A stretch of DNA of 64,000 bases from an uncultured bacterium (GTDB taxonomy: Bacteria; Bacillota_I; Bacilli_A; RFN20; CAG-826). Positions within the stretch are counted from its first letter, which is position 1; every line of letters starts with the position of its first letter. Below, one piece after another: positions 1,774 to 63,718 of the stretch. The translations under genes and the position numbers were made by a program. The stretch spans positions 1,075 to 65,074 of the forward strand of contig CASGAD010000031.1 in the NCBI GenBank assembly GCA_949299335.1, written 5' to 3'. A model generated the notes under the pieces. It was not told where the DNA came from, made no database searches, and worked only from the letters and a program-made list of their open reading frames with translations.

Positions 1774-3312
1774 TTAGTCTTGCGCATTTTCTCCTTTAAA
1801 ATAATCCCGATTTTCTTCATCAACAACACTAACTTCATTAATATTATTCCAATCAGATAAAATTGTAGCTTTAATGTTAGAGTAATGTTTAATTTCATCA
1901 ATTACTTGCTTTGTAAAAACCTCGCCAGGTACAATAATCGGAATTCCTGGAGGATAAATCATAATCATCTCTTTAGAAATTTTATTTAATGCGTCGTCCA
2001 AAGATGAAACCTTTAAAGGTGCATGGAAAGCAACTCTAGGTCTGATTTTCATAGTTGGGAAACCATCGATAAAATGCTTATTTTCTAAATAAGTAATGGA
2101 TGGATCATAATACATATCACTGATTTCTTTTAAAGTTTCAACTATACGGTCAACATCTTTTTGCTCACTTCCAATTGTAAATAAAAGTAAGAAAACGTAA
2201 GTTTCAGCAAGTTCAATTTGAACTTTATACTTATCCTTTAAAAGTTTATATAATTCAAATCCACTGATTGATAATTTATCTATTTCAACACAAAGTTTTG
2301 TTTCGTCATAACTATATGCATCACAATTAGAAACAAAGTAATCTTTAGAATGAGCTATAAAGCCAGGGATTTTATTAATTCTTTCTTTAGCTTGTCTAGC
2401 TAATTTAATAGCATTATAAATATATCTACTGCCCTTAAATACCAAAAATTTTCTAGCAGCGTCTAAACTTGCTAGCAAAATCGAACTTGGTGAAGTTGTT
2501 GTAATCAAATTAAAAGACTTGTTTACTTCATACATTGAGATTCTTTCGCCTTTTAATAAAAGAACTGATGATTGAGTTAAACTTCCTCCAGTTTTATGAA
2601 TTGATAAAGTAGCCATATCAGCTCCTGCATCCATTGCAGTAATTGGTAACTTATTAGAAAAATAAAAGTGGGTACCATGAGCCTCATCTACTAATACTGA
2701 GATATTATGTAAATGAGCATATCTAACTACTTTTTTTAAATCACATGTAGCACCAAAATATGTTGGATTAATAATAAATATTGCTTTAGCATCGGGATTT
2801 TCATCAATTGCTTTTTTCCATTCTTTGTAAGTTGGTTGATTAACAATTTCAGTAGCTTTATCGACTTCAGGCATTATAAAAACAGGCTTAGCACCACTTA
2901 AAATTAATGCATTTATCGCACTTTTATGAACATTTCTAGGCATTATGATTTTTTCATTAGCTTTAACAGCTGACATAATCATAATTAAATTTCCACTAGT
3001 TGACCCATTAACTAAGAACTTACAAAAATCTGCATGACATGCTTTAGCAAATATTTCTTGAGCTTCTTTAATTGCACCGGTAGGATGTAATAAATTATCC
3101 ATACCTCTAGGACAATTAACATCATTTTTATAAACAATATGACCAAAAATATGATCAAAATCTGTACGTATTTTTCCTTGGTGATGACCTGGAACATCAA
3201 ATACAGTCGTTTGTTCTTTTAAATACTTCGAATAGGCATCAAGATATGGTGTCTCTCTTTGTTCGTTTTTCTCTTTTATAGTCATACTTTTATCAATGTT
3301 TATTATATACAT
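1774..3312 (-). CDS. PLP-dependent Orn/Lys/Arg decarboxylase (SpeA/YaaO-like); true start possibly a few codons downstream
   Basis: FDVPGH, NGSTSG, PRNVHKS, DEAHG, SIHKT (PLP lysine), YPPGIP motifs. Confidence 0.9.
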   Translation of the reverse strand: MYIINIDKSMTIKEKNEQRETPYLDAYSKYLKEQTTVFDVPGHHQGKIRTDFDHIFGHIVYKNDVNCPRGMDNLLHPTGAIKEAQEIFAKACHADFCKFLVNGSTSGNLIMIMSAVKANEKIIMPRNVHKSAINALILSGAKPVFIMPEVDKATEIVNQPTYKEWKKAIDENPDAKAIFIINPTYFGATCDLKKVVRYAHLHNISVLVDEAHGTHFYFSNKLPITAMDAGADMATLSIHKTGGSLTQSSVLLLKGERISMYEVNKSFNLITTTSPSSILLASLDAARKFLVFKGSRYIYNAIKLARQAKERINKIPGFIAHSKDYFVSNCDAYSYDETKLCVEIDKLSISGFELYKLLKDKYKVQIELAETYVFLLLFTIGSEQKDVDRIVETLKEISDMYYDPSITYLENKHFIDGFPTMKIRPRVAFHAPLKVSSLDDALNKISKEMIMIYPPGIPIIVPGEVFTKQVIDEIKHYSNIKATILSDWNNINEVSVVDEENRDYFKGENAQD

Positions 3313-13047: not shown

Positions 13048-16000
13048 TTAATACTTGGAATTGATGTAATCATCTTCAGTTGGTAATGACTCTAATTCAT
13101 TTAATGATTCATCGCCAACATCGTTTTCATCATATTCGCTATCATGAATACCTATATATTGTTTTTCAACTTCTTTCATTCTTTGAGTGACATCGAAGTT
13201 ATCAACAAGTTCTTTAGCCTTATCACGAGCTAAGAGACCTCTACCGGCAGGAATTAATTTACCAGTAATAACGTTCTCTTTTAAGCCATGTAAACTATCA
13301 ACTTTTCCTTTAATAGCAGCATCTGTTAAGACACGAGTTGTTTCTTGGAAGGATGCAGCTGAGAGGAAGGAATCTGTTTCAAGAGCAGCTTTTGTAATAC
13401 CTAAGACAAGTGGTCTAGCAACTGCTGGACGTTTTCCAGCAAGTAAAGCGACTTTGTTCTTTTCAGTAAATTCAACAATTGAAACTCTTGTTCCAGGAAT
13501 CATCTCAGTGTCACCACCATCGATAATAACAACTTTTCTAAGCATTTGACGTACGATGACTTCAATATGCTTATCACTAATTGCGATACCTTGGACTCTA
13601 TAAACTTTTTGAACTTCTTTAACGATATAACGCTCAACTGAACCAATATCACTAACTTCAAGAAGTTTCTTAGGAGAAATAGCACCTTCAGTAATCTTAT
13701 CACCATTACGGATTGTATCGCCTTCTTTGACTCTTAATCTAGCGCCAAAGTTAGTTGTATATGTTTTTTCTTCTAATTCGTTAGTAACTGTAACAACGAA
13801 TGTACCATTTCTTTCTTCAATACGAGTAACTTTACCTGGGATTTCACTAATTAAAGCTTCACCTTTTGGATTTCTAGATTCAAATAATTCTTGAACTCTA
13901 GGTAAACCTTGAGTGATATCTTCAGTAGTAGCAACACCACCAGAGTGGAAAGTACGCATAGTTAATTGGGTACCAGGTTCACCGATTGATTGAGCAGCCA
14001 TAATACCAACAGCTTCACCAATTTCGACTGGTTTACCAGTAGCTAAGTTACGTCCATAACAATGTTGACAGACACCATCCTTAGTATTACATCCAAATAA
14101 GGATCTAATTTCAACACGAGTAATACCAGCATTAACAATTGCTTTAGCATCTGCTTCTTCAATTAAAGTGTTGCCTTTAACGATGACTTCACCAGTTTGT
14201 GGATGAATAACATCGTGGCAAGCATATCTACCAATTAATCTTTCTTCTAAAGAAACAATAATTGTATTTTGTGCAGTATTAATAATATCGCTAACTACAG
14301 TACCGTGATCAGAATGACAATCTTCTTCTCTAACGATAACATCTTGAGAAACGTCAACAAGTCTACGAGTTAAATAACCAGAGTCAGCAGTCTTTAAAGC
14401 GGTATCAGCACCACCTTTTCTAGCACCGTGGGTACCTGTGAAGAATTCACTAACGTTAAGACCTTCACGGAAACATGATTTAACAGGTAATTCAATAGTA
14501 TCACCACTTGTTGAAGCCATAAGACCTCTCATACCCATTAATTGTGCGAAGTTTGATTTACTTCCTCTAGCTCCAGAGTTCCGCATGATATAAAGTGGGT
14601 TACGATTATCAGCTCTTAAAGTTTCTTCAACTCTATCACCAACTTCTTTATTTACAGCGTTCCAGACATCAACAACCTTTGCATGTCTTTCTGCATCTGT
14701 TAATAAACCTTTTTCGTATAACATTTCAATCTTATTGACTTGTTTATCACCGGTATCAACTAATTTATCTTTGTTATCAATGACATAAATATCACTAATA
14801 GCGACTGTTAAGCCACTAATTGTTGAATATCTATAACCTTGGTCTTTAATCTTATCAAGAACAGCACTTGTTTTAGTTGTACCATAAACTTGATAAATTT
14901 GATTGATTATTGCAGTGATTTGTTTCTTTCCAATAGGATCTTTTGTTGGTAAAGATGCGATATATTCAGGAATATTTGTTCCACGTGGAACAAAGAATTC
15001 TTTCTTGTTATGTAATAAGTTCTCACTTGATCCATCATTAATAAATGGGAAATCTTTAGGAAAAACAAAGTTAAATATGACTTTACCAACTGTAGTAACG
15101 AGGTAAGAATTGTTCATTTCTGGAGTAAACGAAGTTCTCTTCATTTCTCTACCAGGAATTGCAATTCTATTATGTAAATGGATTAATCCCATTTCATAAC
15201 ATTTATAACATTCATCAATATCTTTAAAGACTTTACCTTCCATATTAGCAAAGTTACGATATTGTTCAGCTCTTTCGATATCACCTACAGATTCGTATTT
15301 TGCAGCTTTTTTAAGGAAATCTTCTTTATTGGATTCCATTGTTAAGTAATAGTTGCCAATTAAGATATCTTGAGATGGAGTAACAATTGGTTTTCCATCT
15401 TTTGGAGCAAGAATGTTATTACTTGCTAACATTAAATCTAATGCTTCTTCTTGTGCTGCTTTACTGATTGGTACGTGGACAGCCATTTGGTCACCATCGA
15501 AGTCAGCGTTAAATCCTGTACAAACGAGTGGGTGAAGTCTAATAGCTCTACCTTCAACTAAGATTGGTTGGAAAGCTTGGATACCAAGTCTATGTAATGT
15601 AGGAGCACGGTTTAATAAGACTGGGTGTTTGGAAATAATTTTTTCGATTACATCATAAACATCTGGGTCTTTGTTATCAATTTTCTTATCAGCTTGTCTA
15701 TGTAAAGTACATTTGCCTTCTTTAATTAAGACAGCAGCGATAAATGGTCTAAGTAAATTAATAGCCATTTCACGTGGTAATCCACATTGATACATTCTTA
15801 ATGTTGGTCCAATTGCGATAACCGAACGTCCAGAATAGTCAACACGTTTACCAAGTAAGTTTTGTCTAAATCTACCTTGTTTACCTTTTAATGCACCGCT
15901 CAATGATTTTAATGGTCTTCCGTTTGGTCCAGTGACTGGTTTGCCATTTCTTCTACCATTATCAATTAAAGCATCGACTGCTTCTTGGAGCATTCTCTTT

Positions 16001-17028
16001 TCGTTCATTAAAATGACGTAAGGAGCGTTTAAATCAATCAACTTCTTTAAACGATTATTACGGGTAATAATTCTACGATATAAATCGTTTAAATCGCTTG
16101 TTGCAAATCTTCCACCATCAAGTTGTAACATTGGTCTTAAATCTGGTGGTATGACTGGTAATGCATCTAAAATCATCCATTCAGGTTTGTTATTTGATTT
16201 TCTAAATGCATCTAATACTTCTAATCTTTTGATTAATTTTTGTAATTTTTGACCGCTAGCTAATTTGATTTCTTTGCTAACTTTTGTAAACTCGCCTTCA
16301 ACTAAGACTTCATTTCCAAATTCATCTCTTACTTTATAATCATTGATTTTGATTTCTTTTAATAAACGTTTAATAGCTTCAGCACCTTCGCCAAATTCAG
16401 CTCCAGTGTATTCACTAATATAGGAAGCACATCCAAAGAAATCGAATGGTTCGTTTGGATTGCCTAATCTATCAAGTAACTCATCTGCATAATTATAACC
16501 AGTTGAACCAGTTTCTAATCCTGCTTGAATTTCTTTGATTGCCATGATGAAAGTTTCTCTACCAACTTTATCATCAAGGAATTGCTTATAATAAAGTGAT
16601 TTACAAGTGCCTGGATTTAAGCAAATATGAGCACTAAAATAAATAACTTCTTCAAGGTTTTTTGGTGAAACATCAAGAACTAAGCCCATTCTTGATGGAA
16701 TACCTTTTAAATACCAAATATGAGAACAAGGTGAAGCAAGTTCAATGTGGCCCATACGTTCTCTTCTAACTTCTTTAGAAATAACTTCAACACCACATTT
16801 TTCACAAACGACACCTGCGTATCTAATTTTCTTATATTTTCCGCAATGACATTCGTAATCCTTACTAGGTCCAAATATTTTTTCGCAGAATAAGCCATCC
16901 ATTTCTGGTTTTTGGCTTCTATAGTTAATAGTCTCTGGTTTTGTAACTTCACCATGTGACCATTCTCTAATTTTTTCAGGAGAAGCTAGTCCGACTTTAA
17001 TACTAGCTAATTTTTCTACATCAAACAT
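13048..17028 (-). CDS. rpoC: RNA polymerase beta' subunit
   Basis: Zn-finger CHCGKYK...CEKC, NADFDGD catalytic motif, [15 protein letters not shown]. Confidence 0.99.
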
Positions 17029-27422: not shown

Positions 27423-27570
27423 CCAATCTAATAAATAATATCATAATGTATCGTTTCCTTCATTAATTAACATTAAAATCAATATTTAGACTTTTAATTT
27501 TGCTCTCCTTAAAGTCTATATTTTTATACTTGTTTCCGTTATAATATTTGAGACACACAGGAGGATGACT

Positions 27571-28572
27571 ATGGAAGAAAGGAAAAGAGCTTTAAGTGGT
27601 ATTAAACCAACAGGTAACCTAACATTAGGTAACTATATAGGTGCATTAAGGGAATTTAAGAAATTTCAAGATGATTATGAAACTTTCATTTTTATTGCTG
27701 ATTTACACGCATTAACCTTGCCAATAGAACCTTCTTTTTTAAAAAATAATACAAAAGATATCGTGGCTTTTTATTTAGCAGCTGGTTTGGATCCTCAGAA
27801 AACGACAATCTTTTTGCAAAGTGACGTAAGTGCTCACGCTGAATTAAATTCAATTTTGATTAACTTCTTATACATGGGCGAACTTAGTAGAATGACTCAA
27901 TTCAAAGAGAAATCTCAAAAGTTAAATCATGAAGCAATTGGTGTTGGTTTATTTGCTTACCCAGTTTTAATGGCTAGTGACATTCTTTTATACAACGCTG
28001 ACATTGTTCCGGTTGGCGATGATCAAACTCAACACGTTGAATTAACACGTGACCTAGTCCATAGATTTAATGAACGTTATAAAAAAGAAGTCTTCATTAT
28101 GCCTAAAGCTGTTAAACCAAAGGTAGGCTCTCGAATCATGTCCCTTTCTGATCCTACTAGAAAAATGTCAAAGTCCGACCCAAAAGGTGATATCTTCTTA
28201 AAAGATGATATAAACATAATTAGAAAAAAGATAATGTCTGCTGTAACCGATACAGGTCACGAAATTAAATATGACCCAGAAAATAAACCTGGTATCTCAA
28301 ATTTATTGACAATTTATGCTTCTTTAAGTGATATCACTATTGAAGAAGCTGAAAATAAATTCAAAGATATAACCCAATATGGTGAATTTAAGAAAACTGT
28401 TGCAGATAAAGTTATTGAAGTAATTGAACCATTTCAACAAAGATATAAAGAAATCTTAAATAGTGGCGTGATTGACCAAGTTTTGAGCGAAGGTGCTAAA
28501 AGAGCTTCCTATATAGCAAATAAAACTTTGCGTAAAGTTAAAAAAACTGTAGGACTATATTTACATGAGTAG
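27571..28572 (+). CDS. trpS: Tryptophan--tRNA ligase
   Basis: SGIKPTG, TLGNYIGA, YPVLMASDIL, VPVGDDQ, KMSKS; start chosen from GGAGG spacing. Confidence 0.97.
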   Translation: MEERKRALSGIKPTGNLTLGNYIGALREFKKFQDDYETFIFIADLHALTLPIEPSFLKNNTKDIVAFYLAAGLDPQKTTIFLQSDVSAHAELNSILINFLYMGELSRMTQFKEKSQKLNHEAIGVGLFAYPVLMASDILLYNADIVPVGDDQTQHVELTRDLVHRFNERYKKEVFIMPKAVKPKVGSRIMSLSDPTRKMSKSDPKGDIFLKDDINIIRKKIMSAVTDTGHEIKYDPENKPGISNLLTIYASLSDITIEEAENKFKDITQYGEFKKTVADKVIEVIEPFQQRYKEILNSGVIDQVLSEGAKRASYIANKTLRKVKKTVGLYLHE

Positions 28573-29473: not shown

Positions 29474-31168
29474 TTAAAAATTTTTATCATCAAAAGAATT
29501 AAGAACCTTCACTTGAGGCTTAATAACTTTTTTTACATTTCCATCAACGAATGGATTTCTTAATTTAGCTTTTTCTAATAAAGTTAAGAAAGGATATTTT
29601 CCACCCATTTTAAGCAATTTTATATATTTTTTCCAGGCTCTTGCATGGTTTTTATCCATAATACACTTAAATTCCAAAGCAATTACTTGTGCTAAAGTAT
29701 AGTCAATATAATAGAAAGGGGTGCAGAAAATATGAGATTGTTTAACCCGATACTTTCCATTTTTTAAATAATCAAAGCCCTCATAATTAAGCCATGGTCT
29801 ATATTTTTTCTCGAGTTCGGACCATTTTTTGCACCTCTCTTCATGAGTTGCATTTGGATTTTCATAAACATAATGTTGGAATTCATCCACTTCCACACCA
29901 TAAGGTAAAAATGAAATTGCGCTATCTAAATGTGAAAATTTATACTTCTCTGCTTGATCTTTAAAGAAAAGATTCATCCAAGGCCATGCAAAGAATTCCA
30001 TAGACATAGAATCAATTTCACAAGCTTCTAAAGTAGGCATTCTATATTCTGGTACCATGACATTGGCACATAAGTATCCTTGGAAAGCGTGACCAACTTC
30101 ATGAGTTAATGTATCAACATCATTACTTGTTCCATTACTATTTGCAAATATAAATGGTGACTTATACTTAGGAATAAAGGTCATATAGCCTCCGCCTCTT
30201 TTCCCGGCCTTAGCGTCTAAATCCATCAAGTGATTATCAACCATAAAGTCAAAAAATTTACCAGATGTTTCACTCATTTCATGATACATTTTACTAGCGC
30301 ACGAAACCAAATATTCTGTGTCTCCACATGGCTTTGCATTTCCACTTAAATAGTCTAAATTATAATCTAAAAATAATGGCTTTTTGATTCCTAATCTTTC
30401 TGCTTGTCTTTTTCTTAATTTTTTAACTACAGGGACAACTGTTTCATAAATTTGATCTCTATAGCCTTTAACCATCTCGCTATTATAATCTAATCTTTCA
30501 AGTCTTAAATAACCTAGTTCCGTATAACTTTTAAATCCTAATTTATGAGCGATTTCTGTCCTTGTTTTAACAAGTTCATCATATATTTCTCCAAATCTTT
30601 TATCGTTTTCTTCTAAGAATCCATAAAATAATTTGGCTGCTTCAATTCTTGTATTTCTATCAGAATCACTTAAAAACTTACCTAATTGACTAAGATTTCT
30701 TTTTTCACCTTTATACTCAATTTGAGCACTAGCCATAAGTTTTTCATATTCAGTTACAAGTTTATTTTCCTTTTGCAAATCTGGGATAATACTTTCATTA
30801 AAAGTTTTGAAACTTGCTTCAATTTTATCAAAATAAAATTTACCGAATTTTTCTTCTAATTCAGGTTTAAATTTAGAGGCTACTAATGCTTTTTTAAAGT
30901 TTTGTGTATATCCATTGATTATTGGAAAAATTTCATCGCATACTTCCATAGCTTTTTCATAAACTTCATCTTGTGTATTTATTGAATTCCTAATAGAAAT
31001 AATTGTAATCTCACTTTCCAATTCATCAGAAACTTTAAAAAAGTCTTTAACGACTTTAATAGCCTCTTCTTTAGTTGACGCATTGTTAATTCTTTCTACA
31101 AGTTTTTTAAATGTTTTTTCTGCCTTTTTTAAATTTGGCACAATTAATGGCATTTCTTCAAATTTCAT
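29474..31168 (-). CDS. M3B oligoendopeptidase (PepF/Pz-peptidase family)
   Basis: HEVGH zinc motif, EIDSMSMEF, QSHIF...PFYYIDYTLAQ; contains the diagnostic CGG codon at 29747-29749. Confidence 0.95.
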   Translation of the reverse strand: MKFEEMPLIVPNLKKAEKTFKKLVERINNASTKEEAIKVVKDFFKVSDELESEITIISIRNSINTQDEVYEKAMEVCDEIFPIINGYTQNFKKALVASKFKPELEEKFGKFYFDKIEASFKTFNESIIPDLQKENKLVTEYEKLMASAQIEYKGEKRNLSQLGKFLSDSDRNTRIEAAKLFYGFLEENDKRFGEIYDELVKTRTEIAHKLGFKSYTELGYLRLERLDYNSEMVKGYRDQIYETVVPVVKKLRKRQAERLGIKKPLFLDYNLDYLSGNAKPCGDTEYLVSCASKMYHEMSETSGKFFDFMVDNHLMDLDAKAGKRGGGYMTFIPKYKSPFIFANSNGTSNDVDTLTHEVGHAFQGYLCANVMVPEYRMPTLEACEIDSMSMEFFAWPWMNLFFKDQAEKYKFSHLDSAISFLPYGVEVDEFQHYVYENPNATHEERCKKWSELEKKYRPWLNYEGFDYLKNGKYRVKQSHIFCTPFYYIDYTLAQVIALEFKCIMDKNHARAWKKYIKLLKMGGKYPFLTLLEKAKLRNPFVDGNVKKVIKPQVKVLNSFDDKNF

Positions 31169-31808: not shown

Positions 31809-32642
31809 ATGAATAAACCAATTATTGCTTTAATGTACGATTTTGATAGGACTTTAGCACTCTCAGATATGCAAAATTTTTCATTCATTCCTAAACTAGG
31901 CTACACTCCAGAAGAATTTTGGGGACTTACTGAAGAATTTTGTAAAAAATATGACATGGACAAAATATTAGGTTACTTGTACATGATGATAAAACTCTCT
32001 AAAGTAAAAAATATAAAATTAACAAAAGAGTTCTTATATGAATGTGGTAAAAATATTAAATTCTACGATGGAGTCACAACCTGGTTTAATAGAATAAACG
32101 AATATGCAAAAAGTAAAGGTATAATTTGTGAACACTATTTAATCACTAGCGGTAATAAAGAAATAGTTGAAGGCTGTCCTATATATAAAGAATTTAAACA
32201 AGTTTTTGGATGCGAATACTTGTTTGACGAATCTGGAGAAGCTTTCTGGCCACGTTCTATGATTAATTACACTTTAAAAACTCAATATATTTTTAGAGTT
32301 TCGAAAAACGCTATTGATTCTAACGATGATAGAAAAGTAAACGAAAAAACACCTCAAAGACGTATCATTTATCAAAATATGATTTATCTCGGTGACGGAA
32401 TGACTGATGTTCCTTGTATGGTTTTAGTTAAGCAAAACGGAGGAACAAGTATAGCTGTTTATCCAAAAGGAAAGAGCCAACAAGTTGCCCACTTATTTGA
32501 GGATGGCAGAGTAAATTATATTTGTAAAGCAGACTATAGCGCAGGCTCTGAATTGGAAAAAGTTGTTAAATTGATTATTGACGGCATTTCTGTTAGAGAA
32601 ACTCTTGAGGAAAAAAGAGAAAGAACAGAAAAAATATTATGA
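31809..32642 (+). CDS. HAD-like hydrolase
   Basis: YDFDRTL, ITSG, KTQ, YLGDGMTDVP; GGAG SD. Confidence 0.9.
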   Translation: MNKPIIALMYDFDRTLALSDMQNFSFIPKLGYTPEEFWGLTEEFCKKYDMDKILGYLYMMIKLSKVKNIKLTKEFLYECGKNIKFYDGVTTWFNRINEYAKSKGIICEHYLITSGNKEIVEGCPIYKEFKQVFGCEYLFDESGEAFWPRSMINYTLKTQYIFRVSKNAIDSNDDRKVNEKTPQRRIIYQNMIYLGDGMTDVPCMVLVKQNGGTSIAVYPKGKSQQVAHLFEDGRVNYICKADYSAGSELEKVVKLIIDGISVRETLEEKRERTEKIL

Positions 32643-33334
32643 TTTATGCTCTTCTAATGATGGCTGGCTCATCATCACGAATGGGCCTTGATATTCCTAA
32701 GCAATACATCGAAATCAATGGAAAATATTTATTTGAGTATCCATTAGAAACTTTTGATAACAATAAATCAATTGACCGTATTGTTTTAATTATCAATGAA
32801 GACTATAAAGAAAAAGTAAAATCCATTATAAATTCTAGAAATTATAGACATGAAATTGAAATTATAATTGGTGGATCAACTCGCCAAGAAAGTGTTTTTA
32901 ATGGCCTTAAATATTTATACGAAGACGAAAAATCATCAGAAAAGGATTATGTCTTAATTCACGACGCTTGTAGAACCTTATTAACTGATAAATTAATTAA
33001 TGAAATCATAAATAATCTTCAAGAAAATGTTTCAGTTGTCCCTGCACTTGGTTCTTCTGATTCCATTTGTCTTAGTGATGAAGGAAATTATATTGAAAAG
33101 TCATTAGATCGCTCTAATTATTATCTACTACAAACTCCTCAAGCTTTTAATCTTTACTTTATTTTTAAAGCGCATAAAAACGCTATTAAAGATAACATAA
33201 ACAATTTTACAGACGACACTTCACTTGCTATAATATGCGGTGGTAAAGTTAAAATTATCAAGGGTGACAAATTTAACTTTAAAGTTACAACTTTTGAAGA
33301 TTTGTTTATAATCAAAAAAATAATTGGAAATTAG
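32639..33334 (+). CDS. ispD: 2-C-methyl-D-erythritol 4-phosphate cytidylyltransferase (IspD/TarI family)
   Basis: AGSSSRM, PKQY, GGSTRQESV, IHDACR, QTPQ, TDD, KVTT. Confidence 0.85.
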   Translation: MIYALLMMAGSSSRMGLDIPKQYIEINGKYLFEYPLETFDNNKSIDRIVLIINEDYKEKVKSIINSRNYRHEIEIIIGGSTRQESVFNGLKYLYEDEKSSEKDYVLIHDACRTLLTDKLINEIINNLQENVSVVPALGSSDSICLSDEGNYIEKSLDRSNYYLLQTPQAFNLYFIFKAHKNAIKDNINNFTDDTSLAIICGGKVKIIKGDKFNFKVTTFEDLFIIKKIIGN

Positions 33335-33335
33335 T

Positions 33336-33725
33336 ATGTATCAATCAATAAGTTATAAGGAAAACGACATTACAAAGGGGATAGTAACCAGTATTAAAAA
33401 ATATGGTGCTTTTTTATCTTTTGAAGGCGGATACATCGGCTTATTGCATATTAGCGAAATTTCTACAAACTTCGTTAATAACATTGGTACATTTTTCAAA
33501 GTTGGAGATGTAATTACTGTCTTAATTAAGTCTATTGATAAAAATACAAAATTCCTTAAATTATCCATTAAAGATTTACCAGATGATTTGAACGAATTTA
33601 AAGAGATTTTGCCATCAAAAAAAGTAACTACATACATTAAGGATATTGATTTTTCTAAACTAGAAAAAATCTTACCTAAAATGATACAAGACGAGCTTGA
33701 GAGGGAGAAACACTATGAAGTTTGA
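33336..33725 (+). CDS. S1 RNA-binding domain protein (YugI/CvfD-like)
   Basis: GIVTSIKKYGAF, GLLHISEIS, LSIK; adjacent to pgi. Confidence 0.88.
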   Translation: MYQSISYKENDITKGIVTSIKKYGAFLSFEGGYIGLLHISEISTNFVNNIGTFFKVGDVITVLIKSIDKNTKFLKLSIKDLPDDLNEFKEILPSKKVTTYIKDIDFSKLEKILPKMIQDELEREKHYEV

Positions 33726-35004: not shown

Positions 35005-35056
35005 AATTATCTGCTAATTTTTGGAAAATCCTCTACACGAAATTGTTAAAAAAATA

Positions 35057-35086
35057 TTGACAATGTTCGCCCTACTTTGATATATT
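35057..35086 (+). promoter_or_regulatory. Promoter of the tRNA operon
   Basis: TTGACA at 35057, extended -10 TGnTATATT ending at 35086, A-rich UP-like element upstream. Confidence 0.75.
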
Positions 35087-35118
35087 ATTAAAGCACGCGT
35101 AGGTCGTGTAGATAGGAT

Positions 35119-35194
35119 GGATGTTTAGCTCAGTTGGGAGAGCATCGCCTTTACACGGCGGAGGTCAGAGGTTCGAGCCCTCTAACATCCACCA
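35119..35194 (+). tRNA. tRNA-Val(TAC)
   Basis: GGATGTT/AACATCC acceptor stem, anticodon loop TTTACAC, GTTCGAG T-loop, encoded CCA. Confidence 0.97.
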
Positions 35195-41254: not shown

Positions 41255-44032
41255 TTAATGTAAGTTTTTTTCTAATTCAATATGTGAAATTGTCCCTAAT
41301 GTTGCAATTGAAGATGCAATACTTAAAAATAAAATTATTAAGAAATTTACTAATAAATACATAGGATTTGCGAGGTTTATTGTAGATAATCCATAGCTTG
41401 ATGACAACAAATTACCGACAATTGAAATAATAAATAATAGAGAAATAGAACTTAAAATATAAGATGCGAAACATTGAACCATGTTATCAATTACAAATAT
41501 CTTTAATATTTGATATCGGTCAAAACCAAGGATTGTAAAAATAGCAATTTCTTTTTTCGATTCTAAAGCATTTACTAAGCTAATAATAACAAGAAGAATT
41601 AAAGAAGAAATTATTGAAACAATAGTAAATGCGTATAATAGATAATTTAAAAATTTCATTGACTCGTTGACGCTTTCTTCTATAGCTAAAATCGGATTTC
41701 TAATTTCATACTCAGCAAAGTATCCGTTTAATTTCTCAATGTCCTTTTTTGACATGCTTCCATTAGTTTCAAATATGATTGAGGTAGGTATTAACGAAAA
41801 GGCAGAAATTTTAAAAAGATCTCTAAACAAAGATAATGAAAATTCCTTATTTTGGTAAATAGAAACACTATTGTCTTCTTTCACAACATCTTTAATTGTT
41901 AATGTGATAGTTTCAAAACTATTTCTTATTTCGCCGTTATATTCTTCACTTCCAACAAGCATTGATATATAAATTTCTTGATTGACAACTTCTTCACCGA
42001 TAATATTTTTGAATCCATTACTAACAATTATTTCATTAGGCAAAAGTTCAACTTCAGATGACTTTAGCTTAAGATTACTTGTAGATGGTTTGAATGCATA
42101 ACCATCCACAACATTATCTGGAACTTTAATGTTTAAATAATCTTCCTCACTAACCTTAGAATGAGCATCTATAACACTTTCAATTTTTGAAATGTCTTTG
42201 CTTAAAAATACAGGCCTAGAAAATCCAGTAAATAACGATGTACCGTTATTAAAATATCCTTGGCTTGTAGAAAAATAATAGCTTTTGTACTTAAAACCAA
42301 TGTCATTTAAATGATTAATTATTCCAATATCTAAACTATCTTTAAAAATATTATAAACATAAAGTTTATTAGTCGATTGGGTATTATACGCACATGTTAA
42401 TGGCGAATAATAGTTATTATCGCTATCAAATAAATAATCTTTATAATCTTGATCATAAAGAATTTCATTTAAAAAATATGTTTGAAATTTTTTGGTATGA
42501 ACATAAAACACTTTCTTGAATATCCAAGGATACTCTTCTATTTTATTTAAACGATTTGAAACCGGGAATTTCATATTCTCTTCAAAAAGGACTGTATTAA
42601 ATAAGGGATTTGTATGATATATCCTATTTTTTGTATCAAGGATAAATGCTTTGATTTTAAATATTTGTTCATCACTATATTGCCGTGAGTCATTTTTAAC
42701 TCTTAGATTCACATACAAATTATGAGTTTTAAGATAATTAGATAATGAAGAAATCGTTCTTTCGATCTTTAAATCAAAACAAATTGATTTTAATGTATCA
42801 AAATTAAAAGAGATTATAATTTCATCATCGTTTAAATCATCAACTATTAAAGGATATGTTTCTAAATTATTGTAATCAGTAATGTATACAAATTCATTGA
42901 ACATTCTAATATTAAACCCACTAATTTCACTTGTTTTTCCTGAATTTAATAAAAATAAATTATTTACATCAGGAAAAAAGTTTTCAAAATCAACAATATA
43001 ATTGCATCCAAAATAATCTAAATATTCCTTGTATTTATTCATTAAAGAAGCAACATCGTTAATCCCACTCGAATAAAAATCAAAAATTTCATTCTTAGAG
43101 TTTTTCTTATTTAACACTACTACATTTTGGTCAATGATATTTTTAAACGACTCGACTAAAGAATTATTAATACCACTTGATAAACAAATTGATAAACCAC
43201 TTGAAATTAAAGAAATTGATAGAAATATGCTTTTTATAATATTCCTAAACTTTCTTACTTTAAATCTTGATTGAAGATATCTAAAAATGTATTTAAATCT
43301 TAATTTTGAAGAATTGTTTTTATTCAATAATTTCATTATTTTTAAAGGTGGATTCTTTTTGCTTCTTTTAATTTTGATAATTTTAATTCTTCTATGTTTT
43401 AATTCAAGGATGTAATCAGCATATTTATATGCACTTTCCCTATCATGAGTAACACAAATCACAGCTGCATTAATTGAAAGATTTCTAAGAATTTCAAATA
43501 TGTTCTCTGTATTATTTGTATCTAAAGCACCTGTAGGTTCATCACAAAAAATAACTTCTGGATCAATTACTATTGATCTAGCTATTGCAACTCTTTGCTT
43601 TTCGCCTCCGCTTAAATTTCTAACATATTCATTTTTTAAATTATCTATTTTTAATAATTTTAAAATTTCATTAACTTTATTCAATCTGAATTCTTTATTG
43701 AGATTTGAAATCGCATCAAGCATTAACAAGACATTATTTTCCACTGTATCATCTTCAAGCAAATTATAATTTTGAAAAATGTAACTAAATTTTGTCGACC
43801 TAATCGTACATTTTTCTTTATATTGAAAATTTGATGTATTTTTATTATCGATAAGTAATTTCCCTCTATAATCATTATCAATTAAAGATAATATGTTTAA
43901 TAGAGTTGTTTTCCCACTTCCAGAATCGCCTAATATGACATAAAATCCGCTATCTTTAAATTCAAAAGAAAAATCTTTAAATAAAGGTTCATCTTCATAT
44001 TGCTTTGTTAATTTGTCTATTTTAATAATCAT
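41255..44032 (-). CDS. Fused ABC ATPase + FtsX-type permease (MacB-like)
   Basis: GDSGSGKT, LSGGEKQR, DEPTGALD, TH; large extracytoplasmic domain; C-terminal FtsX-like TMs. Confidence 0.88.
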   Translation of the reverse strand: MIIKIDKLTKQYEDEPLFKDFSFEFKDSGFYVILGDSGSGKTTLLNILSLIDNDYRGKLLIDNKNTSNFQYKEKCTIRSTKFSYIFQNYNLLEDDTVENNVLLMLDAISNLNKEFRLNKVNEILKLLKIDNLKNEYVRNLSGGEKQRVAIARSIVIDPEVIFCDEPTGALDTNNTENIFEILRNLSINAAVICVTHDRESAYKYADYILELKHRRIKIIKIKRSKKNPPLKIMKLLNKNNSSKLRFKYIFRYLQSRFKVRKFRNIIKSIFLSISLISSGLSICLSSGINNSLVESFKNIIDQNVVVLNKKNSKNEIFDFYSSGINDVASLMNKYKEYLDYFGCNYIVDFENFFPDVNNLFLLNSGKTSEISGFNIRMFNEFVYITDYNNLETYPLIVDDLNDDEIIISFNFDTLKSICFDLKIERTISSLSNYLKTHNLYVNLRVKNDSRQYSDEQIFKIKAFILDTKNRIYHTNPLFNTVLFEENMKFPVSNRLNKIEEYPWIFKKVFYVHTKKFQTYFLNEILYDQDYKDYLFDSDNNYYSPLTCAYNTQSTNKLYVYNIFKDSLDIGIINHLNDIGFKYKSYYFSTSQGYFNNGTSLFTGFSRPVFLSKDISKIESVIDAHSKVSEEDYLNIKVPDNVVDGYAFKPSTSNLKLKSSEVELLPNEIIVSNGFKNIIGEEVVNQEIYISMLVGSEEYNGEIRNSFETITLTIKDVVKEDNSVSIYQNKEFSLSLFRDLFKISAFSLIPTSIIFETNGSMSKKDIEKLNGYFAEYEIRNPILAIEESVNESMKFLNYLLYAFTIVSIISSLILLVIISLVNALESKKEIAIFTILGFDRYQILKIFVIDNMVQCFASYILSSISLLFIISIVGNLLSSSYGLSTINLANPMYLLVNFLIILFLSIASSIATLGTISHIELEKNLH

Positions 44033-51324: not shown

Positions 51325-51531
51325 AGTAAAAATTATATATTCAAAACAATCTAAATAAAAGTGTGATGCCTTAAATTGGGTTTCTCTGTATTTATTGAAA
51401 ACTTAAATTTCCAATATTTTTAATGAGTAAATCACGAAAAGTCTATTTTTTTGATGGCAAATATACATTTATGTATATTTTTACATTAATTTGTGATATT
51501 TTTATATCTAGTTTTTTTGGAGGTATTTAGT

Positions 51532-53355
51532 ATGAAGATGAGAAATGTCGCTATTATCGCTCACGTTGACCATGGAAAAACAACTTTAGTCAATCAACTT
51601 CTTAAATGTAGCGGAACATTTAGAGAAAATGAAAAATTAGAAGATAGAGCCATGGATAGTAACGCAATTGAAAGAGAAAGAGGCATTACAATCTTAGCTA
51701 AAACAACAAGTATCAAATATAAGGACTATAAAATTAACATTTTAGACACTCCCGGACACGCTGATTTTGGAGGAGAAGTCGAAAGAATCATGCATATGGT
51801 TGATGGCTGCTTGCTACTTGTTGATGCTTTTGAAGGAACGATGCCACAAACAAGATTTGTCTTAAAAAAAGCTATCGAAGCTGGTGTAAAACCTGTTGTT
51901 ATTGTTAACAAAGTTGACCGCCCTAATGCTAACGCTGATAAAGCTGTTGATGAAGTTTTACAATTATTTATGGAATTAGGTGCACCTGATAATTTCCTTG
52001 ATTTCAAGGTAGCTTATACTAGTGCTTTAAACGGAACAAGCTCATTAAGTAGTGATCCATCTACTCAACAACCTGGTATGGATCCTGTATACGAATTAAT
52101 TATTAATGAAATTCCTGAGCCAAAGGTAGAGGAAAATGGACCACTTCAACTTCAAGCTGCTTTATTAGATTACAATGATTATGTTGGAAGAATGGGTATT
52201 GGTAGAATTCAAAGAGGAACTATAAAAGTAGGTTCTACCGTATCATGTGCAAGACTTGATGGAACTTCCAAACAATTCAAAATACTTAAATTAATCGGAT
52301 ATTATGGTTTAAAGAAGATTGAAATTGAAGAAGCTCATGCTGGCGAAATTGTCGCTGTTGCTGGTTTACCAGATATAAACATTGGTGAAACAATTTGTGA
52401 TACTACTAATGTTGAACCACTTCCATTACTACACATCGATGAACCAACCTTACAAATGACATTTGGTACAAACAGCTCACCTTTCGCTGGACAAGATGGA
52501 AAACTATTAACTGCAAGGCAAATCGAAGAAAGGCTTTATAAAGAAGCTCAAAAAGATGTCTCTTTAAAAGTTAAAAGAGTTCCTAATAGTGAGACCTGGA
52601 TTGTCAGTGGAAGAGGCGAATTACATTTAGGCATTCTAATTGAAAACATGCGTAGAGAAGGCTACGAAATTGAAGTAAGCAGACCTCAAGTTATCATTAA
52701 AGAAGTAAATGGTGTCAAACAAGAGCCTTACGAAGATTTAAGTGTTGAAGTCCCTAACGAATTTGTTGGTGATATTATGACTTCTTTAGGATCAAGAGAC
52801 GCTGAATTAATTGATATGGATGCTGGTGATGTTAATACAAAAATTAATTATGTCATTCCATCAAGAGGACTTATTGGTTTTGTAACAAACTTCTTAACAC
52901 TTACTAAAGGATACGGAATTATAGCTCATACATTTAAAGAGTACCGCCCTATTGCTCAAGGTAAAATTGGTGAAAGAGCTGTTGGTGTATTAGTTGCTAC
53001 CGAAAACGGACAATCAACCCCATACGCAATTCAACACGTTGAAGAAAGAGGCGTAATGTTTATTTACCCAGGCACTCAAATCTATGAAGGTATGATTGTT
53101 GGGGAAAATAAATATGATACTGATTTAAGTGTAAATGTTTGTCAAACCAAAAATTTAACAAACCAAAGAAGCGCTAATAAAGACCAAACTGTCGTTTTAA
53201 AATCACCTAGAAAAATGACCCTTGAAGCATGCTTAGATTATATTAATAGCGATGAACTTGTAGAAGTTACTCCAAATAATTTTAGAATGAGGAAGAAAAT
53301 TTTAAATAATGCTGAGCGTAAAAAACGGGAAGCAAAATTTAAAGTTCAACAATAA
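51532..53355 (+). CDS. typA: Translational GTPase TypA/BipA
   Basis: [38 protein letters not shown]; ATG 51532 after GGAGG. Confidence 0.97.
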   Translation: MKMRNVAIIAHVDHGKTTLVNQLLKCSGTFRENEKLEDRAMDSNAIERERGITILAKTTSIKYKDYKINILDTPGHADFGGEVERIMHMVDGCLLLVDAFEGTMPQTRFVLKKAIEAGVKPVVIVNKVDRPNANADKAVDEVLQLFMELGAPDNFLDFKVAYTSALNGTSSLSSDPSTQQPGMDPVYELIINEIPEPKVEENGPLQLQAALLDYNDYVGRMGIGRIQRGTIKVGSTVSCARLDGTSKQFKILKLIGYYGLKKIEIEEAHAGEIVAVAGLPDINIGETICDTTNVEPLPLLHIDEPTLQMTFGTNSSPFAGQDGKLLTARQIEERLYKEAQKDVSLKVKRVPNSETWIVSGRGELHLGILIENMRREGYEIEVSRPQVIIKEVNGVKQEPYEDLSVEVPNEFVGDIMTSLGSRDAELIDMDAGDVNTKINYVIPSRGLIGFVTNFLTLTKGYGIIAHTFKEYRPIAQGKIGERAVGVLVATENGQSTPYAIQHVEERGVMFIYPGTQIYEGMIVGENKYDTDLSVNVCQTKNLTNQRSANKDQTVVLKSPRKMTLEACLDYINSDELVEVTPNNFRMRKKILNNAERKKREAKFKVQQ

Positions 53356-58563: not shown

Positions 58564-59208
58564 CTATAAATTTTTAAGGTAATCGTAAAACTCATCAAAA
58601 CTATCTATAACTTTAGCATTAGTAGTTTGAAGGAGAGCTTTTGAATTGTGCCCTTTCGAAAATAATATTGGCTTAAGTTCTAATTCATTAGCCACTTCAT
58701 AATCATGTAATGTATCTCCAATCATTATAGATTCATCGACATTAATATTATGGTTTTTGATAAATAACTTTCCGTATTCAATTTTTCCAAGAGCAGCGAT
58801 ATTATTACTAGCACTAAAGCCATCAAAATATTCAAGTATTCCTAATTGCTTTAATTGATTAATAAGAATGCTTTCTTCAGAAGCGGTTAAAATGTATAAA
58901 TTATAGCCATCTTTTTTTAACTTTTTAAGAAGTTCTTCGATTCCTTCATGTAAACAAGTTTCTTGCTTTTCACGAGACAAATATTTACTAAAAAACTTCT
59001 CTGAAATACGATGATAATTTTCTCCGGAGATGTCAAATCCGACCAATTTATAATAATTTTTTACAGGAAAACAAAAATTATTAAGGTAAAAATCTTTAGT
59101 AACGGGCGCGAGGCCTTCTTCTTTTATCATCTCATCTTCAATATCAAAACAAAGATCAGTATCATCTAAAATGGTCCCGTTGAAATCAAAAAATATATTT
59201 TTAATCAT
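58564..59208 (-). CDS. HAD-IA hydrolase (phosphoglycolate phosphatase-like)
   Basis: FDFNGTILDD, LTAS, GK, IGDTLHD. Confidence 0.88.
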   Translation of the reverse strand: MIKNIFFDFNGTILDDTDLCFDIEDEMIKEEGLAPVTKDFYLNNFCFPVKNYYKLVGFDISGENYHRISEKFFSKYLSREKQETCLHEGIEELLKKLKKDGYNLYILTASEESILINQLKQLGILEYFDGFSASNNIAALGKIEYGKLFIKNHNINVDESIMIGDTLHDYEVANELELKPILFSKGHNSKALLQTTNAKVIDSFDEFYDYLKNL

Positions 59209-60470
59209 TAGCGTGAACCCATCGCTTTCTCAATATCATCAATCTCTTTAATAATTGAACCACTTAAACAATAACTTCCATCTTCCGTAACTAATATATC
59301 ATCTTCGATTCTTACACCGATTCCTAATTCCTTAAAATATAATCCAGGTTCGTCTGTAATAATATTGCCAGGAACTAATGGAAGGTCTCTATTAGCAGGA
59401 TCGTGTGTATCCAACCCTAGATGGTGTCCAATTGAATGGAAATAATACTTACGAATTTCAGACTCATTACTCATTAATCCTTCTTCGACGCAGCGTCTAG
59501 CCATAAAGTTTGTAGCTATATCGTTTAATTCTTTTATTGTGATTCCAGGCTTAATAGAATCAATTATTAATTTGTTACATGCTAAAACAATGCCGTAAAT
59601 TTTCTTTTGTAAATCAGTAAATCTTCCATTTGCAGGATATGTTCTAGAAATATCGGCGCAATATAAATTGTTTTGACTACCTAAATCAAATAAAACAAGG
59701 TCTCCGTCCTTAATCTTTGCTACAGGAGTTGGATAATGCAAGCATGTTGCATTAACACCACTGGCACAAATTGTTGAGAAACTTAATTCACTATTATCGT
59801 AGTCTTGAATCGTGTAATAAAATAAACTTGATAATTGATATTCATAAAGACCAGGTCTAATTTTCTTAAGAATATTTTTTAAGCCAATGTTAGTTTTATT
59901 AATCGCTTCTTTTAATTCGGCTATTTCATCTTTACTTTTAACCATTCTTAGACTAATGATTCTATTGTAAATATCCTTAGCTTCAAGCCGAGGATAATTC
60001 ATTAATAAAACATCTTTAGCTTCCTCGATGGTCTTAAATCCATCAATTAGATTCTCAGGTTCTAAATCAAAGTATATGGTTGAAATCTTTGCAAAAGCGC
60101 TATCTTTTTTGCAAATTAATAAGTCTAATTCGCTTTCAAAAACATTTAAATACATTACATTATCGATACCACTTAAATCACGAGCTTCATTTGGTCTTAA
60201 TCTTTTCCCGGTCCATTTTTCTTTAACTTCATCGTATTCGCTAATGAATAAATATTCTTTAATTATGCCATCTTGTTTTGCGACTAATAAAATTGAACCT
60301 TCTTGTTTAATATTCGTTAGATAATAAAAATTTCTATTTACAACAAATGGATATGTTTCATCAGCACTTCTTTTTTTACTTACTCCAGCATAAAGAATTA
60401 GGATTGAATTATCCTCAAGTGACTCATATAATTTCTCTCTTCGAGAAGCAATTTCCTTAACTTCAATCAT
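59208..60470 (-). CDS. pepP: Xaa-Pro aminopeptidase (aminopeptidase P, M24B)
   Basis: RNFYYLT, LHY, DLG...ADISRT, HSIGHHLGLDTHD, EPGLY, GVRIEDD. Confidence 0.93.
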   Translation of the reverse strand: MIEVKEIASRREKLYESLEDNSILILYAGVSKKRSADETYPFVVNRNFYYLTNIKQEGSILLVAKQDGIIKEYLFISEYDEVKEKWTGKRLRPNEARDLSGIDNVMYLNVFESELDLLICKKDSAFAKISTIYFDLEPENLIDGFKTIEEAKDVLLMNYPRLEAKDIYNRIISLRMVKSKDEIAELKEAINKTNIGLKNILKKIRPGLYEYQLSSLFYYTIQDYDNSELSFSTICASGVNATCLHYPTPVAKIKDGDLVLFDLGSQNNLYCADISRTYPANGRFTDLQKKIYGIVLACNKLIIDSIKPGITIKELNDIATNFMARRCVEEGLMSNESEIRKYYFHSIGHHLGLDTHDPANRDLPLVPGNIITDEPGLYFKELGIGVRIEDDILVTEDGSYCLSGSIIKEIDDIEKAMGSR

Positions 60471-60471: not shown

Positions 60472-61296
60472 TTATTTCTCCAATACTTTTACCACACTAT
60501 CGATTTCTGGCATTAAATCTACAATACTTTCTGTATCTCCTTCATCAATGAGTGCTGCAACACTTTGACGAATTGGTAATCTTGTTAACGCTTTTAATCC
60601 TGTTTCAGCAGCAAACTCATCTAATCTTGATTTGCCATAAATATCGATATGTTCACCACATTTTGGACATTCAACGTAACTCATATTTTCAACTACGCCC
60701 AAAATAGGTATATTCATCATTTTAGCCATGTTAATTGCTTTTTTAACGATTAAAGAAACTAGATCTTGTGGGGATGTAACAACAATAATTCCATCTAATG
60801 GAATAGATTGGAAGGTAGTCAAAGTTACATCGCTTGTTCCAGGTGGCATATCAATTAATAAATACTCTAATTCGCCCCAAGCAACCTCTGTATAGAACTG
60901 TTTTAATAATGAGGATACTAGTCCACCACGCCAAATAATAGGGTCTTCTTCATGCTCTAATAAAAGATTTGAAGAAATAATTTTTATACCACTTAATGTT
61001 TCGGCAGGAATAATGTGTTGAAAATCATTTCCATATGCACTTTGATGAATATTAAAGGAATTTGGAATTGATGGACCAACAATGTCACCATCCAAAATTC
61101 CAACTTTATGTCCGTTTTTATTTAGTTTAGCAGCTAACAAAGAGGTAACAAATGATTTACCAACACCTCCCTTACCACTAACAACAGCTATCGTTTTCTT
61201 TATTTTTGTCTCATTATTAGGCTTAACCTTCTCTATTCTATCGTGGCAGCCTTCTACTCCACATGTTTCACAGTTATGTGTACAACCTTCACTCAT
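60472..61296 (-). CDS. Mrp/NBP35 (ApbC) Fe-S carrier ATPase
   Basis: N-terminal CxxxCxxCxxxxC, SGKGGVGKS, WRG, DMPPGTSD, ENMS...CPKC. Confidence 0.93.
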   Translation of the reverse strand: MSEGCTHNCETCGVEGCHDRIEKVKPNNETKIKKTIAVVSGKGGVGKSFVTSLLAAKLNKNGHKVGILDGDIVGPSIPNSFNIHQSAYGNDFQHIIPAETLSGIKIISSNLLLEHEEDPIIWRGGLVSSLLKQFYTEVAWGELEYLLIDMPPGTSDVTLTTFQSIPLDGIIVVTSPQDLVSLIVKKAINMAKMMNIPILGVVENMSYVECPKCGEHIDIYGKSRLDEFAAETGLKALTRLPIRQSVAALIDEGDTESIVDLMPEIDSVVKVLEK

Positions 61297-61937: not shown

Positions 61938-62831
61938 ATGAAAGAAAAAATTAAGTGCAAGAAATGTGGTCTTTTGATTGATGATGATTTAGAAACCTGC
62001 CCTTATTGTGGATATTCACAAAAAGATGACACAGAAACTCATCCAATTGAAAATAAAAATGAAGAAATTAAAGAGGCACCAAATACAAAAAGCCATTCTT
62101 TTTTTAGTTTTCCTTCAAGAACTTTGGATATAAGCATAACTAAATCAATTGTTTTATTTTTATTTGGTTTAATAGGATTAAAATTTATAGGGTTACTATT
62201 TGAATTAATTAGTATAACTACTGGCAATCTTTATTTTATTAATAACCTTGAAGCGAGTGCTGCAATTAACTTTTCATGTTACGCAATCCTTTTTGGTGCT
62301 TTTCTCATTATATTAAATTTTGATTTAGACAAATTTTTTAAATCATTTAAAAGTAAAACTCTAGCACTTGATGGCATAGGCTTTGGATTCTTCTTAATGA
62401 TAGTCTCAAGTGCTGTAACCTTATTATTTAAATTTTTCGATACCTCAACCGGATCAAACGCAAACGAGCAAGGTGTTGATGCAATTACTGATATTTATCC
62501 TGTTCTTTCATTGCTTATTTTTGGAATAATAGGTCCAATTTGCGAAGAATTGACTTATAGAGCTGGATTATTCACTGCTATAAAAAAGTACAATAGAACA
62601 GCTGCCTATATTGTGACTGCTATAATATTTGGCTTAATTCACTTCGACTTTGGAAGTATTGGTGGCGAAAGTTTTGTAAGTGAGCTTATTAATATTCCAA
62701 GTTATATAGTTAGTGGCTTGCTCCTCTGTTATTTTTATGACTATAAAGGGATTGGAGTAAGCACAGTTGCTCATGTCACCAATAATTTTATTGCTATATT
62801 AGTTCAAATTTTGAGTTCTGCTTTATTATGA
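61938..62831 (+). CDS. CAAX protease/Abi (CPBP) intramembrane metalloprotease with N-terminal zinc ribbon
   Basis: CKKC...CPYC; EELTYR, FGLIH, HVTNN motifs. Confidence 0.9.
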   Translation: MKEKIKCKKCGLLIDDDLETCPYCGYSQKDDTETHPIENKNEEIKEAPNTKSHSFFSFPSRTLDISITKSIVLFLFGLIGLKFIGLLFELISITTGNLYFINNLEASAAINFSCYAILFGAFLIILNFDLDKFFKSFKSKTLALDGIGFGFFLMIVSSAVTLLFKFFDTSTGSNANEQGVDAITDIYPVLSLLIFGIIGPICEELTYRAGLFTAIKKYNRTAAYIVTAIIFGLIHFDFGSIGGESFVSELINIPSYIVSGLLLCYFYDYKGIGVSTVAHVTNNFIAILVQILSSALL

Positions 62832-63718
62832 AAAGAATATTAACTCACTTTGATTTGAAATTAATTGCAGTAATTTCAATGACATTAGACCATATAGGAA
62901 GAATGATTCTTTTGTTTTTTCCTACAAATGAAAGTTTAAGCATCTTAAGTTATATTCTTACTATTTTTGGAAGACTAGCTTTTCCAATATTTTTATTCTT
63001 AGTAATCGAAGGATTTTATCATACTAAAAATATTAAACTCTATTTTCTTAGGTTGGGCATAATGGCTCTAATCGTTTATCTAGGTTTACTTACATTGTCC
63101 TTAGTCTCTATAGATTCATTAAATATTGAGCCGTTAAAAATTGGAAATATATTTATCGATCTAATTCTTGCTTTGTTATTTGTATACTTAATAAATAAAA
63201 AGGGGCGGCTATATAAATTGCTTTTAATTCCTTTAATAGGATACTTTGTTATATTTTTATTATTACAAATAAATATATTTTCAATAAATAATAGCTTATT
63301 AAAAGCTTTGGTTTCAGGATTAGCTCCACAATATTCTTTTGTAACTCCTCTATTACTTGTTATATTTTTTGTAATCACTTTTTCATATAATTTTTATGAC
63401 ATTAAAAAACTAAATATTGTTGATAAAAATGATTTAAATTACGCATATACTCCTAGTGTTATTAAAAGAGAATACATTTACTCTTTTGCTGTTATCATTT
63501 TAATTCTTATTTTATACGCATTAACCTATGTTGAGGGATTAAATTTAAATACTGATTTGGCTTTGAATACCTATTTTATTTTCGCTATTATTCCTATTAT
63601 TCTATATAATGGCGGTATCGGTAAAAATAGCAAAATAATTCAGGGTGCATTTTATTTGTATTACCCTATATCTATTTGTATTATCTATTTAGTATTCTAT
63701 TTAATTAGTTTAATTTAA
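62828..63718 (+). CDS. TraX-like membrane protein (putative acyltransferase)
   Basis: LKLIAVISMTLDHIG, GRLAFPIF, EGFYHT, YNG, FYLYYP. Confidence 0.82.
   Translation: MKRILTHFDLKLIAVISMTLDHIGRMILLFFPTNESLSILSYILTIFGRLAFPIFLFLVIEGFYHTKNIKLYFLRLGIMALIVYLGLLTLSLVSIDSLNIEPLKIGNIFIDLILALLFVYLINKKGRLYKLLLIPLIGYFVIFLLLQINIFSINNSLLKALVSGLAPQYSFVTPLLLVIFFVITFSYNFYDIKKLNIVDKNDLNYAYTPSVIKREYIYSFAVIILILILYALTYVEGLNLNTDLALNTYFIFAIIPIILYNGGIGKNSKIIQGAFYLYYPISICIIYLVFYLISLI

Follow-up and report, generated by a model that had tools for sequence, protein, structure and literature searches.

The window analysed here, a stretch of 64,000 nucleotides, holds an intact oligoendopeptidase gene in which the codon CGG occupies a position that is tryptophan in every homologue compared. 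From this codon, from the CGG codons of the rest of the genome and from the tRNA that reads them, all of them sequence evidence, we conclude that the host (RFN20, genus UBA4855/Onthovivens, one of the small, AT-rich, uncultivated Bacilli) very probably decodes CGG as tryptophan. The initial annotation had proposed this meaning for the peptidase codon, in preference to a damaging Trp-to-Arg substitution in a decaying gene, and the homologous column, the genome-wide tally and tRNA(CCG) all support it. What has been found is a code variant already published for this genus, here rediscovered correctly; the initial annotation does not mention that it was known.

CGG at an invariant tryptophan position of an intact peptidase gene

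On the minus strand, positions 29749-29747 read CGG (C at 29749, G at 29748 and 29747), embedded in AAT GGA AAG TAT CGG GTT AAA CAA TCT CAT ATT TTC, which confirms the codon that had been picked out from the peptidase motif. It is in frame with the open reading frame 29474..31168(-), where 31168-29749 = 1419 = 473 x 3 makes it codon 474, and translation table 11 gives NGKYRVKQSHIF and then CTPFYYIDYTLAQ around it. The two features concerned are:

29474..31168, minus strand: intact gene for a 564-aa oligoendopeptidase of the M3B (non-PepF), Pz-peptidase-like type (PF01432, TIGR02289, 3ahm_A)
29747..29749, minus strand: codon 474 of the peptidase, CGG where the column is otherwise invariably Trp (from the sequence and the ortholog columns)

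The initial annotation had described the rest of this gene as intact, and so we found it. The reading frame is open across 564 aa and matches PF01432 (E 6.3e-28), TIGR02289 'M3_not_pepF' over profile positions 2-547 of 549 (622.6 bits, 180 bits above the cut-off of 442.35) and the Pz-peptidase 3ahm_A over residues 1-563 (E 8.5e-176). Its HEVGH and LEACEIDSMSME align to HEAGH and LEACEIHSMSME in 3ahm_A, with the Glu region after HEVGH intact; we take the HEVGH/HEAGH motif and this downstream Glu region to be the zinc ligands of the peptidase. A full-length TIGR02289 match above the curated cut-off, together with the HExxH site, places the protein among the M3B oligoendopeptidases.

The proposed residue-for-residue match of the segment around codon 474 to the M3B/Pz-peptidase motif holds as well, as 3ahm_A has GGFWQRQSHIY...FYYIDYTLAQ at the same place, and it exceeds chance, given that 1 of 5957 aligned sites of the genome's other Arg codons has Trp as its counterpart. 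In all 29 orthologous loci from relatives of the same genus and order, the codon aligned to peptidase position 474 is TGG. With 80 further loci, taken from named genomes of several phyla (a few others besides Bacilli, Clostridia, Paenibacillus and Bacillus), TGG fills the column in 109 of 109 other loci, 44-85% identical to the peptidase; since some sequence is shared between the two sets (L055 contains L011), independent genomes number somewhat fewer than 109. TGG is also found in the closest relative, L048, at 85% identity (NGKYWIRQSHIF), and at L022 the aligner placed a gap at the column, yet the W is present: QKHLWLRQSHIF. The three PDB homologues (3ahm_A, 3sks_A and 2h1j_A) all have W there, within GGFWQRQ[S/G]HIY. 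Arginine, the residue to look for if the standard meaning were to hold, was never seen among these homologues. Moreover, translating the peptidase with CGG as W raises its TIGR02289 score from 622.6 to 630.6 bits (+8.0). The uniform W of the column and the gain in score with W argue that Arg is not tolerated at this column in any of the homologues examined.

CGG codons across the genome lie mostly opposite tryptophan

The genome of the window (G000) comprises 1,417,171 bases in 37 contigs, with 28.8% GC and 98% completeness. All of its stop-to-stop open reading frames of at least 100 aa were compared by tblastn with 948 kb of the congeneric genome G020, about 86% of its rounded size, and the tally rests on this single reference genome. 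Well-aligned stretches contained 45 CGG sites, of which 26 lay opposite TGG, 5 opposite R, 3 each opposite L and Y, 2 each opposite K and F, and 1 each opposite N, E, S and T. For the remaining Arg codons, five in number, W was the counterpart at 1 of 6046 sites and R at 4018 (Fisher p 1e-58 versus CGG).

Upon inspection, some of the odd CGG sites proved to lie in spurious frames (antisense shadows, a frame across the tRNA cluster on contig C4, a codon before the first ATG of a gene on contig C14). Dropping the open reading frames that are overshadowed by a longer one left 42 CGG sites (26 W, 3 Y, 2 F, 2 K, 4 R and T, L, N, E, S 1 each), with the other five Arg codons meeting W at 1 of 5957. 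All 4 sites opposite R are also CGG in G020 and lie in non-coding frames, 3 of them in the frame of the tRNA cluster and 1 upstream of a start. An apparent CGG opposite Arg(CGT) on contig C3, in an antisense-looking shadow frame rich in Ser, Pro and Leu, was removed by the same filter. In real genes, none of the 38 CGG codons lies opposite a non-CGG Arg codon of G020.

At about 11 of these 38 coding sites the counterpart is not W (Y3, F2, K2, T, L, N, E, S), a fraction somewhat above that of the TGG control, where 155 of 885 sites were not W (730 W, 54 Y, 28 F). Some of these non-W sites could be tolerated substitutions or sites of ambiguous decoding. In its profile, CGG resembles a Trp codon and is unlike the Arg codons (R 48-69%, K 14-22%); it corresponds to Trp, and not to Arg, columns across many genes.

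The same relation is seen in the reverse direction. Loci of other genus members, 291 kb in all, gave 9 CGG sites, of which 6 lie opposite a TGG of G000 (5 of 8 when one site of G009 that was seen twice is counted once); one is in the same peptidase at another Trp (the KKYRPW site), and one at a GRPGWHTECC motif. Genus members with CGG at other Trp columns are represented by the loci L005/L204 (G009), L219 (G042) and L206 (G058).

Codon usage in the open reading frames of at least 100 aa of G000 amounts to 3.25 CGG and 59.4 TGG per 10,000 codons, and there are 141 in-frame CGG codons, noise included. CGA is still Arg in this genome (R opposite 115 of 192 sites, W absent among the top residues listed), and TGA serves as a stop, ending 115 of 973 ORFs.

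Further in-frame CGG codons of the window are:

14581..14583, minus strand: CGG codon 816 of rpoC (ORF 13048..17028; TIGR02386), opposite TGG in G020 (PLYIMWNSGAR)
42683..42685, minus strand: CGG codon 450 in ORF 41255..44032, which encodes an ABC-transporter protein of 925 aa; the G020 counterpart is TGG
53326..53328, plus strand: CGG codon 612 of typA/bipA (ORF 51493..53355), opposite TAC (Tyr) in G020
59988..59990, minus strand: CGG codon 161 in ORF 59208..60470, which is Xaa-Pro aminopeptidase-like; its counterpart AAA (Lys) stands in a variable stretch with gaps, and the site is uninformative and was counted as non-Trp
63206..63208, plus strand: CGG codon 127 in ORF 62828..63718 (296 aa, unannotated); its counterpart, from a match of 41% identity, is TCT (Ser), and the site is uninformative
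1807..1809, minus strand: CGG codon 502 in ORF 1774..3312 (512 aa, PLP-decarboxylase-like); nothing in G020 aligned to this codon

The aromatic Tyr opposite the typA/bipA codon would fit Trp better than Arg. Three more CGG triplets, at 25161-25163(+), 27279-27281(+) and 61312-61314(-), are non-coding: two are antisense to longer genes that contain them, and the third precedes the ATG of ORF 60472..61296. The window also carries five tRNA genes (Val-UAC, Tyr-GUA, Gln-UUG, Lys-UUU, Leu-UAA) at 35119-35555(+), after the region's only plus-strand gene block, and this cluster coincides with the sole positive GC-skew bin, 32001-36000.

A tRNA(CCG) with tryptophan identity elements

ARAGORN detected 42 tRNA genes in the whole of G000, among them one tRNA-Trp(CCA) and, for the Arg boxes, the anticodons ACG, CCU, UCU and CCG; tRNA(UCG) was not found in this 98%-complete genome. 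With tRNA(ACG) present and tRNA(UCG) not found, tRNA(CCG) is the dedicated decoder of CGG. It is encoded outside the window, on contig C19 at 5031-5104, and is 74 nt long. Its D loop, AATGGTA, is the same as that of tRNA-Trp and gives U20, not A20, whereas the three true Arg tRNAs of the genome have A20 in a longer D loop. It has the discriminator G73 and the first pair G1:U72, and its anticodon stem consists of five pairs, the last of them U:G. Under the rule of Shulgina & Eddy, a provisional Trp acceptor has G73 and lacks A20, with A/G1:U72 as a supportive element (PMC8629427); tRNA(CCG) of G000 shows G73, no A20 and also the weaker A/G1:U72 element. In pairwise comparison within G000, raw counts of identity to tRNA(CCG) were highest for the long Ser and Leu tRNAs, and tRNA-Trp reached 50/77, so that this comparison singles out no parent tRNA.

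Of 60 genomes in the genus, 27, G000 among them, gave a tRNA(CCG) in a BLAST search with this tRNA. G73 is present in all 27 and A20 in none. Among the 21 distinct sequences, the 1:72 pair is A:U or G:U in 16 and G:C in 5, and the nearest tRNA of G000 is tRNA-Trp for 16 and an Arg tRNA for none; it was at this level of the genus, and not within G000 alone, that tRNA-Trp came first.

In G000 the T loop of tRNA(CCG) is TCCGATT, which puts C at position 55. G063 and G050 share this feature, and G002 and others have TTCGATT or TTCAATT. Position 55 of tRNAs is almost always U (pseudouridine), and C55 is unusual for a working tRNA.

Beyond the genus, the short 74-nt BLAST query, run over 201 genomes of the order, found no tRNA(CCG), and nothing comparable in 190 further genomes of the order; a match in G237 turned out to be tRNA-Gly(CCC) and one in G241 to span 19 nt, neither being tRNA(CCG). 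Within the genus, G020 has 23.5% GC and 0.61 CGG per 10,000 codons, and both tRNA(CCG) and tRNA(UCG) are absent among the 38 tRNAs in its 948 kb. G020 looks like a genome at the stage of unassigned CGG. G023 likewise gave no BLAST match to tRNA(CCG). G058 has CGG at a Trp column, yet tRNA(CCG) was not found by BLAST in its 92%-complete assembly.

Tryptophanyl-tRNA synthetases of the genus

A single gene for tryptophanyl-tRNA synthetase (TrpRS) was found in G000, and it lies in the window, with the 3' end of the peptidase gene some 0.9 kb away:

27565..28572, plus strand: trpS, the only tryptophanyl-tRNA synthetase gene found in G000 (TIGR00233, 365.6 bits versus a cut-off of 176.75)

In the genus, 57 genomes gave a match to trpS. 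The enzyme is G000-like in 50 of them (65-89% identical, two as fragments), and the remaining 7 (G020, G021, G023, G052, G070, G071 and G074) have only a TrpRS of 33-35% identity. Of these seven, G021, G052, G070, G071 and G074 have tRNA(CCG), and in G020 and G023 it was not found. Since tRNA(CCG) thus occurs beside both types of TrpRS, the idea of a special TrpRS that goes with tRNA(CCG) was dropped. Recognition by TrpRS reportedly includes A36 as a rule; we assume that the enzyme would nevertheless charge tRNA(CCG), which has G36.

Proposed mechanism of CGG capture

We propose that AT pressure would have made CGG rare in this lineage. In tRNA-Arg(ACG), I34 reads U, C and A and not G, and PMC8629427 likewise argues that this I34 leaves CGG unread. 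As I34 forms no pair with G and no tRNA(UCG) was found, CGG is read by tRNA(CCG) alone, and its meaning can hence shift while CGU, CGC and CGA stay Arg. This tRNA(CCG) has lost A20, the arginine mark, and bears G73 and G1:U72, the tryptophan marks. With the mark for ArgRS gone and those for TrpRS present, it is presumably charged by the single TrpRS, which would then serve both tRNA-Trp(CCA) and tRNA(CCG). Under such a code the transition from TGG to CGG would be silent, which would explain how CGG came to stand at the otherwise invariant Trp474 of an intact peptidase. We infer that Trp is the only residue inserted at CGG in vivo.

It is also possible, albeit somewhat doubtful, that the genus forms a natural series of all stages of sense-codon capture, in which G000 would have gone furthest and reached a 'rebound' stage. 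Some congeners, such as G020 and G023, show almost no CGG and no decoder for it, and others have a Trp-type tRNA(CCG). G000, where CGG use is about 5 times that of G020, may be gaining new CGG codons by silent TGG-to-CGG changes at invariant Trp sites, codon 474 being TGG in every other locus examined, the 85%-identical one included. If true, the coexistence of tRNA(CCG) with two unrelated types of TrpRS would mean that G36 is tolerated without a specialised synthetase.

Alternative explanations

Of the alternatives to a code in which CGG is fully Trp, the one that survives best is a partial capture of the codon, in which decoding is ambiguous (Trp with some Arg) or inefficient and position 474 is heterogeneous in vivo. 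It would agree with the continued rarity of CGG, with the coding sites that are not opposite W and with the unusual C55 of the decoding tRNA; G020 and G023, which seem to have no CGG decoder, would make the state a young one in the genus, and the authors of PMC8629427 themselves hold ambiguity to be possible short of experiment. However, the complete lack of CGG opposite non-CGG Arg codons in real genes speaks against it, as does the loss of A20, the main mark for ArgRS, from every tRNA(CCG) of the genus. Furthermore, genes of an essential type, rpoC among them, have CGG at Trp positions that are otherwise invariant, and an Arg there would probably do harm. We therefore regard partial capture as improbable.

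Less probable still, and made very unlikely by the genome-wide tally, is that the standard code holds and that codon 474 is a real Trp-to-Arg missense change in a decaying or tolerant peptidase gene. Table 11 does give R at this codon, TGG to CGG is a single transition, and the TGG of L048, at 85% identity, would make the change recent. Against this, the reading frame is intact and scores well above the family cut-off, and the same 'error' would have had to hit 25 other Trp columns while sparing every Arg column, although the other Arg codons hardly ever meet W; besides, the sole tRNA that reads CGG is without A20.

As to the letter itself, a 5406-nt contig built independently from run X2 (depth 11.3), which comes from the study of the possible source but was built on a different sample, covers 29552-30100 with one difference (29993) and carries CGG, not TGG; at the level of contigs this goes against the consensus error that the initial annotation had named as a refutation. 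Run X6, from another study, covers 29724-30100 with the codon 23-25 nt from the contig end and 5 differences, one of them unplaced, and was not counted; run X5 covers 29685-29719, outside the codon. A consensus error with TGG as the true sequence, conceivable in a 37-contig draft for which the possible source run X1 gave no coverage of the stretch, is very unlikely indeed in view of the X2 contig and the genome-wide pattern, as random T-to-C errors would not choose Trp codons 26 times and relatives have CGG at other Trp columns.

Relation to known reassignments of CGG

CGG as Trp has been described for a clade of RFN20 Bacilli whose genomes are low in GC, seldom use CGG, lack tRNA(UCG) and encode a tRNA(CCG) of Trp-like kind (Shulgina & Eddy, eLife 2021, PMC8629427). 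The sheet 'Bacilli CGG->Trp' of that work gives the genus UBA4855, with GC of 0.26-0.30 and one each of tRNA(ACG), tRNA(CCG) and tRNA(CCA); for 'Bacillales bacterium UBA6380' (s__UBA4855) it lists the call '?' and no tRNA(CCG) found. The locus L055, which bears this very name, contains L011, a locus of G023 from the same genus as G000, which places G000 in the published clade by way of a shared locus rather than a tree; the lack of a tRNA(CCG) match in G023 agrees with the table on UBA6380. The lineage has since been named Onthovivens (NAR 2026, PMC13092985), and the related locus L060 is titled 'Candidatus Onthovivens sp.'; UBA4855 and Onthovivens would appear to be one genus. The reassignment is also among the known ones recovered in a 2026 preprint (10.64898/2026.04.02.715157).

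On the points covered by the sheet, nothing differs in kind between the published clade and G000. The reassignment is the same, and so is the tRNA set (ACG 1, UCG 0, CCG 1, CCA 1); the GC of 0.288 lies within 0.26-0.30, and in both some congeners are without tRNA(CCG). CGG use in G000, a raw ORF count of 3.25 per 10,000, equals or slightly exceeds the 0.86-2.5 per 10,000 of the table, which was measured differently, in Pfam-aligned columns. The values of G000 likewise lie within a GC of 0.26-0.38 and a CGG use below 6 per 10,000.

Other lineages described in PMC8629427 share parts of this pattern. Anaerococcus, likewise a low-GC member of the Bacillota without tRNA(UCG), has CGG as Trp through a tRNA(CCG) with Trp marks; it differs in belonging to the unrelated class Clostridia and in that its CGG is too rare for supporting conserved positions, versus 26 in G000. 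In Absconditabacteria, whose genomes are AT-rich too, Arg codons of the CGN box have been captured by Trp, but there CGA and CGG are both Trp, via tRNA(UCG) and tRNA(CCG), and UGA is Gly, whereas G000 keeps CGA as Arg and TGA as stop. In Peptacetobacter (CGG as Gln) and Mycoplasma capricolum (CGG unassigned), both cited in PMC8629427, the same codon was freed by AT pressure and loss of tRNA(UCG), but its new meaning is Gln or none.

The present analysis adds no biology beyond PMC8629427. Sense-codon reassignments are rare in bacteria, and G000 is a clean, checkable instance; it also illustrates that a code change of this kind is detectable by a reader of raw sequence. None of the NCBI translation tables available to the analysis reads CGG as Trp. 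Annotation of this genome with table 11 writes Arg where Trp is most likely, at up to about 140 codons that include invariant residues of the peptidase and of rpoC, and CGG codons misannotated in this way corrupt database entries, structure predictions and heterologous expression.
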